From Stagnimonas sp. (lineage in GTDB: Bacteria > Pseudomonadota > Gammaproteobacteria > Nevskiales > Nevskiaceae), in contig JBKJJE010000186.1 in the NCBI GenBank assembly GCA_046598075.1, positions 3,402 to 67,401 of the forward strand: a stretch of 64,000 nt of DNA. Direction: 5' to 3'. A program made the translations under genes and the position numbers. Positions 12,583 through 15,658 of the stretch are shown one piece after another. Numbering within the stretch: position 1 is the first letter of the stretch; the number at the start of each line of letters is the position of its first letter. The notes below the pieces were generated by a model. It was not told the DNA's origin. It saw only the letters and a program-made list of their open reading frames with translations, and did no database searches.

Positions 12583-12594
12583 AGCCTAGGCCTT
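12574..12594. terminator. 9-bp perfect hairpin formed by the convergent stops of tesB and uvrA
   Basis: AAGGCCTAG-AGC-CTAGGCCTT. There is no U-tract, so a terminator function is uncertain. Confidence 0.3.
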
Positions 12595-15525
12595 GAGCAT
12601 CGCTTTCAGGAACTGCCCGGTGTAGGAACCTTTCGCCTTTGCCACCTGTTCCGGGGTGCCGGCAGCAACGATCCTGCCGCCGCCGCTGCCGCCTTCCGGC
12701 CCCATGTCAATGATCCAGTCAGCGCGCTTGATGACGTCGAGATTGTGCTCGATCACCACCACGGTGTTGCCGTGGTCGCGCAGTCGCTCGATCACCTTCA
12801 GCAGCTGGGCGACGTCGTGGAAGTGCAAGCCGGTGGTGGGTTCGTCGAGGATGTAGAGCGTCTGCCCGGTGTCGCGGCGTGACAGCTCCTTGGCCAGCTT
12901 GATGCGCTGCGCCTCGCCGCCGGACAGCGTCGTCGCGTTCTGGCCGAGCGTGATGTAGGAGAGGCCGACGTCGAGCAGGGTCTTGAGCTTGTTGGCGAGC
13001 GCGGGCACCGGCTTGAAGAACTCGTGGGCCACTTCCACGGTCATCCCCAGCACTTCGTTGATGCTCTTGCCCTTGTATTTGATCTCCAGCGTCTCGCGGT
13101 TGTAGCGCCGGCCCTTGCAGGTGTCGCAGGTGACGTAGACATCGGGAAGAAAGTGCATCTCCACCTTGATCAGGCCGTCGCCCTCGCAGGTCTCGCAGCG
13201 CCCACCCTTGACGTTGAAGCTGAAGCGCCCTGCCTCGTAGCCGCGGGCACGCGACTCCGGCACCTCGCAGAACAGCTCGCGGATCGGGGTGAACAGGCCG
13301 GTGTAGGTGGCCGGATTGCTGCGCGGAGTCCGACCGATTGGCGACTGGTCGATGTCCACCAGTTTGTCCAGATGTTCCATGCCCCTGATGGCCTTGGCTG
13401 CCGACCAGCGCGAGGCGGCACCATTGAGATGGCGCGCGGCGTAGTTCATCAGGGTGTCGTTGATCAGCGTCGACTTGCCGCTGCCGCTGACGCCGGTGAC
13501 GCAGGTGAACAGCCCGCAGGGGATTTCCACCGTGACGTCGCGCAGGTTGTTGCCGGTGGCGTTCTCGACCACGATCATCCTCTTGGGATCGACCGGGTGG
13601 CGGGTGGTGGGGATGGCGATTTTCTCGACGCCGCTCAGGTAGCGCCCGGTCAGCGAATCGGGATTGGCCTGCACCTGCTGCGGCGTGCCTTCGGCAACGA
13701 TGCGGCCGCCGTGCACGCCGGCGCCGGGGCCGATGTCCACCACGTAGTCCGCGCTCATGATCGCGTCCTCGTCGTGCTCGACCACGATCACGGTGTTGCC
13801 GAGATCGCGCAGATGCACCAGGGTTTTCAACAGCCGCTCGTTGTCGCGCTGGTGCAGGCCGATGGAGGGCTCGTCGAGCACGTACATCACGCCGACCAGG
13901 CCGGCACCGATCTGACTGGCCAGGCGAATGCGCTGCGACTCGCCGCCGCTCAGGGTTTCGGCGCTGCGCGCCAGGGTCAGGTAATCGAGACCGACGTTGT
14001 TGAGAAAACCCAGCCGCGCGACGATCTCCTTCAGTATCTTCTCGGCGATCTCGCCCTTGTGGCCGGGCAGCCGCATCTGCGTGAACCAGGCTTCGGCATC
14101 GCGGATCGACAGCGCGGTGAGCTCGTGCAGCGGCTTATCGGCGACGAACACATTGCGCGCGGTGCGGTTGAGGCGGGCGCCGCCGCAGTCCGGGCAGGCC
14201 TTGTTGCTCAGGTAGCGTGCCAGCTCTTCTTTCACCGCCAGCGATTCGGTCTCTTTGTAGCGACGCTGCAGGTTGGGGATGATGCCCTCGAAGCGGTGCA
14301 GGCGGGTCACCGTCTTGCCGTGTACGTCGGGATAGCTGAATTGCAGTTTTTCTTCGCCGCTGCCGTGCAGTACCAGCGCCTGCACCTTGGCAGTCAGCTT
14401 GTTGAAAGGCTTGTCGGTATCGAAACCATAGTGCCTGGCGAGGCTCTTGATCAGCGCCCAGTAATAGGCGTTCTTCCGGTCCCAGCCCTTGACTGCGCCA
14501 TCGGACAGCGACAGGTCGGCGGCGACCACCACCCGGTCCGGGTCGAACACCTGCAGCGTGCCCAGGCCATCGCAGGTCTGGCAGGCGCCGTGCGGTGCGT
14601 TGAAGCTGAAGATGCGCGGTTCGAGTTCCGGCACCGAGTAGCCGCAGTGCGGGCAGGCCATGCGGTTGCTGAAGGTGATCTCTGCTCTTTGAACCCCATC
14701 GCCTTCGCCATCCGTGGCGCGACCGCCGCTCTGTTGATCTAGCTCTGCCCGGCCATCCTTGGCCGGGCGTTCGGGGCCACCGCGAGCAGTGCTCGCAAGC
14801 CGTGGCCCCTCACCATGCGGTGCGACCAGCACCAGACCGTCGCTTAAGCGCAGCGCCGTCTCGAACGACTCGGTAATGCGCTGCTTCACATCCACGCGCA
14901 CCTTGAAGCGATCCACCACCACTTCGATGTCGTGCTTGAGCTTGCGGTTGAGTGCGGGCACCGCGTCGATCTCGTGCACATGGCCGTTGACCCGCACCCG
15001 CACAAAGCCCTGCGCGCGCAGCTGTTCGAACCATTCCGCATGCTCACCCTTGCGGCCGCGTACCACCGGGGCCAGGATCATCCAGGCCGATTCGGCAGGC
15101 AACGCCAGCACGTGATCAACCATCTGCGAGACGCTTTGCGCTTCCAGCGTCACTGCGTGATCAGGGCAGCGCGGCGTGCCAACGCGGGCGAACAGCAGGC
15201 GCAGGTAGTCCTGGATTTCGGTCACCGTGCCCACCGTCGAGCGCGGATTGTGGCTGGTCGATTTCTGCTCGATGGAGATCGCTGGCGACAGGCCCTCGAT
15301 GGAGTCCACATCGGGCTTGTCCATCATGCTCAGGAACTGCCGCGCGTAGGCGCTTAAGCTTTCCACGTAGCGCCGCTGGCCTTCCGCGTACAGGGTGTCG
15401 AACGCCAGCGAGGACTTGCCCGAGCCGGACAGCCCGGTGATGACGATCAGCTTGTCGCGCGGCAGCGTCAGCGAGACATTCTTGAGATTGTGGGTGCGCG
15501 CACCGCGGATGCGTATTGCGTCCAT
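12586..15525 (-). CDS. uvrA: Excinuclease ABC subunit A
   Basis: [41 protein letters not shown], second Walker [11 protein letters not shown], two LSGGE signatures and zinc-finger Cys motifs. Alternative start at 15531. Confidence 0.98.
14683..14820. repeat. Palindromic REP/MITE-like segment inserted in frame within uvrA
   Basis: Hairpins CCCGGCCA-TCCT-TGGCCGGG (14748-14767), GGGGCCAC...GCGAGCA-G-TGCTCGC...GTGGCCCC (14773-14809) and CGCCA-TCCG-TGGCG (14706-14719). It encodes a 46-aa loop where UvrA normally has about 8 aa. Confidence 0.65.
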
Positions 15526-15658
15526 GGACATGGGCGTCAGTACCTGGGCAAAGCCTGAAAAAGGGATCGGCTACTATACGTTGCCTTCGTCGCCTGATTG
15601 CGCCCCGCGCTCCAGCTTCTCCCAATTCATGCGCGCCGATCCCGACGAACCGACCCCG

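Follow-up and report, generated by a model that had tools for sequence, protein, structure and literature searches.

Palindromic repeats that lie in frame within protein-coding genes have their classical example in RPE-1 to RPE-10 of Rickettsia (Ogata et al. 2000/2002; PMC10969869). Intragenic REPs have been described in many species, with an excess in excision-repair genes, and uvrA of Thioalkalivibrio and of Opitutus terrae is among the genes listed as carrying them (Di Nocera, De Gregorio & Rocco 2013; PMC3733652). In-frame palindromic repeats, uvrA included, are therefore already published; the repeat family that we describe here, family A, is new. One of its copies lies in uvrA of Stagnimonas, within a 64,000-nucleotide stretch of the genome (the window, to which coordinates refer unless a contig is named).

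RPEs are described (PMC10969869) as palindromic elements of ~100 to 150 bp, present in many copies, both between genes and in frame in unrelated housekeeping genes, with a consistent frame that encodes a hydrophilic peptide in surface loops; family A matches this description. The host differs, being a free-living gammaproteobacterium of the Nevskiaceae with 65% G+C, and ~4 of the 22 family A copies are intragenic, compared with nearly half in some RPE families. GTAG and CGTC REPs are also G+C-rich stem-loops found mostly between genes and sometimes in frame, and CGTC REPs, like family A, have no dedicated transposase (PMC3733652). These REPs are, however, single hairpins of 20 to 40 bp, or dimers, with an unpaired tag, whereas family A is a fixed composite of three hairpins (PMC3733652). 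The Thioalkalivibrio and Opitutus inserts differ in lying at other positions, in UvrA paralogues of 1889 to 1995 aa. We rejected membership of family A in the CGTC REPs: CGTC occurs in about half of the copies, paired inside stem 2, and the stems do not have the features of that family. The GTAG tag is likewise absent from family A, and the GTGA-like tail flanking its copies appears to be host-derived.

With REPIN/RAYT and IS200/IS605-derived elements, family A shares hairpins near both ends, precise-looking empty sites, and Y1 genes in most congeners, and its copies may likewise lie beside a short unduplicated target motif. As for REPs and REPINs, its copies are mainly extragenic, ~18 of 22 loci in the Stagnimonas genome lying between genes predicted by a simple ad hoc caller. 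Unlike in those systems, this genome yielded no match to a Y1 gene, family A copies were not seen beside one, and one copy has a 26-bp duplication. MITEs such as Correia/NEMIS, ERIC, and Nezha resemble family A in that they are small, noncoding, and dispersed, lie within genes on occasion, and in some cases are fused in frame to host genes, but family A lacks terminal inverted repeats and regular target-site duplication. The uvrA copy adds Nevskiales to the groups with insertions of the RPE and intragenic-REP type and offers a clean, datable case of selfish hairpin DNA giving rise to a new loop in a conserved repair enzyme whose sister species keep the empty site.

The insert in uvrA

The gene is single-copy in its own genome (G000; one match in a genome-wide search of 3.26 Mb in 204 contigs, 64.7% G+C, 96.8% complete). 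An initial annotation of the window, made from the sequence alone, had reported a 46-residue loop between VLVA and EITFS, and this span is exactly 46 residues long (14683-14820). The linker of about 8 residues that it gave for E. coli agrees with the 9 residues (PHGEANTAA) between the same landmarks in congeneric orthologues. Its count of A/T-ending codons was also correct: 21 of the 46 end in A or T, compared with 12.8% of the other 935 uvrA codons (binomial p = 5e-8), and within uvrA the codons AGA and CTA are confined to this stretch. The features of the locus are collected in Table 1.

Table 1. Features of the uvrA insert and further in-frame family A copies
Feature	Position	Strand	Basis or remark
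uvrA ORF	12586..15531	minus	intact, 981 aa; Pfam UvrA_inter, UvrA_DNA-bind, ABC_tran
CPHC zinc-finger cysteines	14644..14655	minus	just downstream of uvrA insert
24 nt (EGDGVQRA), hairpin 1 to EITFS codons	14683..14706	minus	replaces relatives' 18-nt linker
Family A three-hairpin repeat copy	14704..14815	plus, antisense to uvrA	covariance-model limits
Hairpin 1, 5-bp stem, GCCATCCGTGGC	14707..14718	plus	5' motif conserved across family
Hairpin 2, 9-bp stem GCCCGGCCA/TGGCCGGGC, loop TCCT	14747..14768	plus	compensatory changes among copies
Hairpin 3, nested	14773..14809	plus	outer stem varies by copy, inner palindrome GCGAGCAGTGCTCGC conserved
Tail TCACCATGC, presumed target motif TC(A/G)CC	14810..14818	plus	uvrA empty sites read TCGCCATGC
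UvrB-binding domain (UvrA_inter, residues 132-237)	14821..15138	minus	Pfam; alignment to 2r6f/3fpn
AcrB/CzcA-type RND transporter with family A copy	contig C142		Pfam; empty orthologues in G001, G010, G004
KS-AT-DH-PPTase polyketide-synthase-like protein with family A copy	contig C129		Pfam; empty orthologue in G010
Alpha/beta hydrolase with family A copy	contig C145		Pfam; seven empty-site congeners

We placed the insert in the protein by homology to solved UvrA structures. Its flanks align to residues 129-261 and 257-420 of Geobacillus UvrA (2r6f/3uwx), and the insertion point corresponds to residues ~258-262 of Bst UvrA, where the isolated interaction-domain construct 3fpn stops. By Pfam, the insert starts at residue 238, exactly at the end of UvrA_inter. 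Because the UvrB-binding domain is flexibly attached in published UvrA structures, a longer tether at this hinge is plausibly harmless. The residues EGDGVQRA may represent either a diverged linker or an extension of the element.

In the nearest relatives the site reads PHG-EANTAA-EITFS, with a 6-residue linker, and the gene in G000 is longer by 111 bases. A 334-aa query that covers 1002 bp in G000 covers 885-891 bp in most relatives; sites are empty, with a region of 891 bp, in G010, G008, G001, G009, G006, and G002. Over the UvrA flanks, G010 and G008 share 94-97% protein identity with G000, and in a UvrA tree computed without the insert columns G000 clusters tightly with G010, G008, and G001, whose sites are empty. 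The insert is species-specific, and the insertion appears to be recent, postdating the split from the nearest sequenced relatives. The original short linker was apparently replaced, not simply split, and the same possibly holds for the hydrolase and RND transporter genes.

Structure, spread, and junctions of family A

All three hairpins proposed in the initial annotation are present, as a 9-bp stem, a nested pair, and a 5-bp stem, and the motif GCCATCC(G/T)TGGC that it pointed out does occur twice, at 14707 and 14752. The arms of hairpin 2 occupy 14747-14755/14760-14768. In hairpin 3, the outer stem is GGGGCCACCGC/GCCGTGGCCCC (14773-14783/14799-14809) and the inner stem GCGAGCA/TGCTCGC (14782-14788/14790-14796). 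Folded as single-stranded DNA, the 121-nt segment reaches -35 kcal/mol (z = -3.6), a value equaled by 0 of 200 shuffles.

The annotation had read the segment as a REP/MITE-like element inserted in frame by analogy with RPEs, a reading borne out by 22 to 24 copies in the genome and by its absence from uvrA of the closest relatives; the segment is neither single-copy nor conserved at the protein level. This copy number comes from 41 blast matches, 24 hits in an iterated nhmmer search, and 24 hits of a covariance model built from 15 full copies, which scores the uvrA copy (C155:18105-18216) at 96.6 bits (E = 2e-16). Its closest relative, at C145:1456-1567, shares 85% identity over 112 nt (blastn). 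The family A element is noncoding, ~106-120 nt long, and made up of three stem-loops: a 5' hairpin with the consensus GCCGTCCNTGGCG, a second hairpin with the loop ATCC(A/C)T, and a third whose inner palindrome is nearly invariant and whose outer stem is copy-specific. Compensatory changes affect 16 of the 27 predicted pairs. A 17-nt 5' extension, which would give a 120-nt element, fits the arithmetic of the uvrA and hydrolase copies and is absent from the copy on contig C187 and from the RND copy. Terminal inverted repeats are absent, as the 5' end GCCGTCCNTGGCG is not complementary to the outer stem of hairpin 3, and an Rfam search with the uvrA copy and six other loci gave no family-level match. 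Family A is a previously undescribed composite repeat family.

All 11 Stagnimonas genomes carry family A, with 3 to 19 copies each (E <= 1e-6). An exact-pattern scan of species-representative genomes returned at least 113 loci, and the genera among the matches listed were Nevskia, Stagnimonas, Solimonas, Polycyclovorans, Hydrocarboniphaga, Stenotrophobium, Microbulbifer, and a few Lysobacteraceae. Within these listed loci, nhmmer gave 123 hits, 73 of them full-length; the listed Microbulbifer copies mostly consisted of hairpins 2 and 3 only.

Copies vary in presence among related genomes. We joined the 200-nt flanks of 16 other copies and searched for them in four congeners, and for most of these loci at least one congener had the empty site while another had the element. 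Presence and absence were confirmed by alignment to 13 empty sites; these come from species ~80-90% identical, so the junctions are fixed to within a few bases. A 9-nt TCACCCC-like tail after hairpin 3 also appears in the empty sites at ~9 of the 13 loci, and because of this recurrence we take the tail to be host DNA. The most natural reading of its consensus is a preferred target, TC(A/G)CC, which is GGYGA on the opposite strand. Within uvrA, GGYGA is the Gly-Glu part of PHGE, with the His-Gly-Glu codons on the coding strand.

The copy on C187 has a perfect 26-bp target duplication abutting both ends. It is the sole such case among the 22 copies, and the other 21 do not exceed the null distribution for target-site duplication. 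A duplication of this kind is not predicted by single-strand "peel and paste." The outer stem of hairpin 3 resembles host sequence in the uvrA, hydrolase, and RND copies, and we considered whether it is copied from the target; the C187 copy has no such relation, and the idea was dropped.

The cognate RAYT/IS200-like transposase suggested in the initial annotation did not materialize, as G000 contains no match to the Y1/RAYT family PF01797. A Y1 transposase gene is present in 7 of 10 congeners; G010 has a single one, far from every family A copy. When the proteins neighboring the foreign loci (at least 113) were clustered, no recurrent transposase-like neighbor was found, only housekeeping synteny.

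Further in-frame copies and the uvrA hinge

The suggestion that the family creates protein loops genome-wide is upheld by three further in-frame copies deep in long ORFs, each with empty sites in congeners (Table 1). For the hydrolase, the empty sites in G004, G010, G003, G008, G001, G007, and G005 read WG-SED-KPLL, compared with a 43-residue stretch in the filled protein. In G009 and G006 this site holds a shortened copy that bears the same copy-specific stem, so the history of the hydrolase copy is more complicated: it was either lost in several lineages or exchanged between them. Each of the four intragenic copies lies antisense to the orientation of the model, and all are read in the same frame (..LASTAR..(M/K)DGR..), an agreement with a chance of ~(1/6)^3 if orientation and frame were random. 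The shared frame is the most benign of the six: it is the most hydrophilic (Kyte-Doolittle -0.95), is poorest in Cys and Trp, and has the highest number of charged residues. With the GGTGA motif on the coding strand, the reading xGG TGA is impossible, which excludes one phase.

The insertion point in uvrA has been used repeatedly. Among 129 family genomes surveyed, 124 had uvrA, and at least 16 of these 124 Nevskiaceae genomes, in five genera, carry inserts of at least 45 bases, mostly palindromic, at the same codon (G000, G003, G005, G007, G016, G052, G065, G075, G086, G091, G092, G093, G095, G096, G097, and G142); several further genomes have inserts of 20-66 nt there. The four insert families tested at this codon are mutually different. 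G003 and G007 have a different palindromic insert from that of G000; it has 28 matches in the G003 genome, 50 in that of G007, and none in G000, and the copy in G007 is frameshifted. A third insert, in G005, has 52 matches, in G005 only, and a fourth, in G016, has 14. The insert translations bear a PSP..PLP..GEG signature of CCCTCTCCC/GGGAGAGGG hairpins, and the majority of the long inserts form much more stable folds than shuffled sequences do (z -3 to -12). The UvrA tree indicates at least four independent insertion events, each beside empty-site relatives.

The arrival of at least four palindromic families at one uvrA codon lets a permissive site be tested against a targeted one, and such recurrence is relevant to the suspicion, already in print, of more hits in excision-repair genes than expected by chance. 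It is conceivable, though in our view rather unlikely, that the hinge goes beyond being merely permissive and that hairpin repeats are actively targeted to it. The sequence CAYGGYGAG, encoding His-Gly-Glu, would then mimic the short target of a shared single-strand transposition machinery. If so, repeated filling by unrelated families would be general in uvrA evolution in the Nevskiaceae, and filling could possibly tune UvrA-UvrB loading. Three features deserve to be followed: the use of the hinge by several families, the one frame common to the intragenic copies, and the flanking motif. For annotation, such loops should not be taken for lineage-specific functional domains.

Origin and fate of the uvrA insertion

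We consider it probable, at roughly 0.85, that a mobile hairpin repeat of the REP/BIME/RPE kind inserted in uvrA after the split from the nearest relatives and that it is presumably translated and tolerated. The family A copy occupies the hinge that joins the UvrB-binding domain to the first zinc finger, beside the GGYGA (TCRCC) motif of the His-Gly-Glu codons. Because the net gain of 111 nt is a multiple of three and the antisense frame, which is hydrophilic, is open, uvrA is intact. Presumably the element is read into the protein as a flexible surface loop of 37 residues, and UvrA tolerates this loop. As for movement, our best guess is that a Y1/RAYT-type enzyme, either supplied in trans or lost since, transposed the element in a single-strand, hairpin-dependent manner and inserted it next to a short target that was not duplicated.

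The main rival for the mode of movement is template switching, in which a microhomology-mediated repair patch would be drawn from another copy, with no transposase involved: the hairpins would stall the fork, and the nascent strand would copy an ectopic element and return at a nearby microhomology. Variable junctions (the C187 duplication and the replaced linker in uvrA, perhaps also in the hydrolase and RND genes) are what such a process might leave, the host sequence GGCGAGG shares microhomology with the element-end sequence, and the lack of a transposase match in G000 is in keeping with it. However, the constant boundary and flanking motif at many loci in many genera better fit a sequence-specific enzyme, and the conserved loops suggest recognition by a protein, so that we regard template switching as a route that probably was not taken. 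An origin through misassembly is very unlikely. The assembly, at 204 contigs, does resemble a draft or metagenome bin into which a repeat copy could have been misjoined, and a cluster look-up found no second, independently assembled copy of this UvrA protein in the collection. But the uvrA copy is at most 85% identical to any other, so its reads would hardly be mistaken for those of another; the reading frame is exactly kept; the nearest contig end is 14 kb away; and analogous inserts occur in independent assemblies of relatives, complete chromosomes included.

Whether the insert does anything for its host is a separate matter. The initial annotation called it domesticated, which goes too far for a species-specific insert with foreign codon usage and no sign of function; only its word "tolerated" stands. 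Retention for a function, whether through mRNA stability or translation pausing at the RNA level or, in the protein, as a longer tether that alters UvrA-UvrB loading, would make the element truly domesticated, and it is an improbable reading. Filling of the hinge by different families in so many genomes would suit it, as would the still perfect stems of the uvrA copy and the case made by Di Nocera et al. 2013 for more hits in repair genes than chance would give (PMC3733652). On the other hand, the closest relatives of each insert have none, the inserts share no common sequence or length, a scan of the insert region found no promoter-like or terminator-like site, the codon usage is unadapted, and the frame of the G007 copy is broken. 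Neutral persistence of the loop seems the better account. There is next to no chance that the segment is instead an old lineage-specific linker with incidental hairpins: hinge length does vary across bacteria, yet we found no support for this idea, which is refuted by the multicopy matches, among them the 85% identical locus within a 22-copy family, and by empty orthologues with closely similar flanks.

Insertion and possible loss of family-A copies

One intergenic copy of family A, the ~110-nt three-hairpin repeat, lies on contig C187 of G000, the genome holding the window, between two identical direct repeats of 26 bp (CCCTGGCACTGGTGCTGGCGGGCTTC). This sequence is single in the corresponding empty site of the congener G010. 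Among the family-A copies in G000, only this one shows a target duplication, and the unusual length of this duplication hints at a second insertion route.

The history of the in-frame copy in the alpha/beta hydrolase gene on C145 is more complicated. A shortened copy, which has the stem specific to the G000 hydrolase copy, is found in the orthologues of G009 and G006. The site is filled in these distant congeners and empty in nearer ones, which implies either repeated precise loss or allele exchange.

Features and coordinates
Feature	Location	Remarks
Intergenic family-A copy	G000 C187:11263-11376	Outside window
Shortened family-A copy	Hydrolase orthologues L173/L171 (G009, G006)	Same codon as in G000
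UvrA second variable site	Residues ~212-216, window ~14885-14900	Between KVR and KQR
G007 uvrA region with family-B insert	L015 = G007:C151:3077-4062	986 nt
Partial cspA thermoregulator RNA match (RF01766)	L002:1-271 = G000 C145:1-271	
Separate dispersed repeat	G000 C45:1409-1608	Outside window; 200 nt right of C45 family-A copy

Further variation in uvrA

The second variable site of UvrA falls within the UvrB-binding domain. Several genera carry 8 to 12 additional Gly/Ala/Asp-rich residues here, e.g., VRAPAADGGDAGGGLKQ (relatives L030, L188, L189, L190, L191, and L196-L199); G000 UvrA has no insert at this site. In G007, the insert of family B, a different palindromic repeat, disrupts the uvrA reading frame, leaving open frames of 280 and 715 aa; either the gene is truly disrupted or this genome, which is 78% complete, was misassembled at that point. 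In another Nevskiaceae genome, G095, uvrA is divided between two contigs at the same point as this break.

Other elements

The RF01766 match, upstream of a probable cold-shock gene, is interrupted by the contig end and scores 56.5 bits, under the gathering score. The sequence beside the C45 copy matches dozens of sites in the congeners G008, G001, G004, and G010 at 75 to 93% identity, and is another dispersed repeat of ~150 to 190 nt, unrelated to family A.
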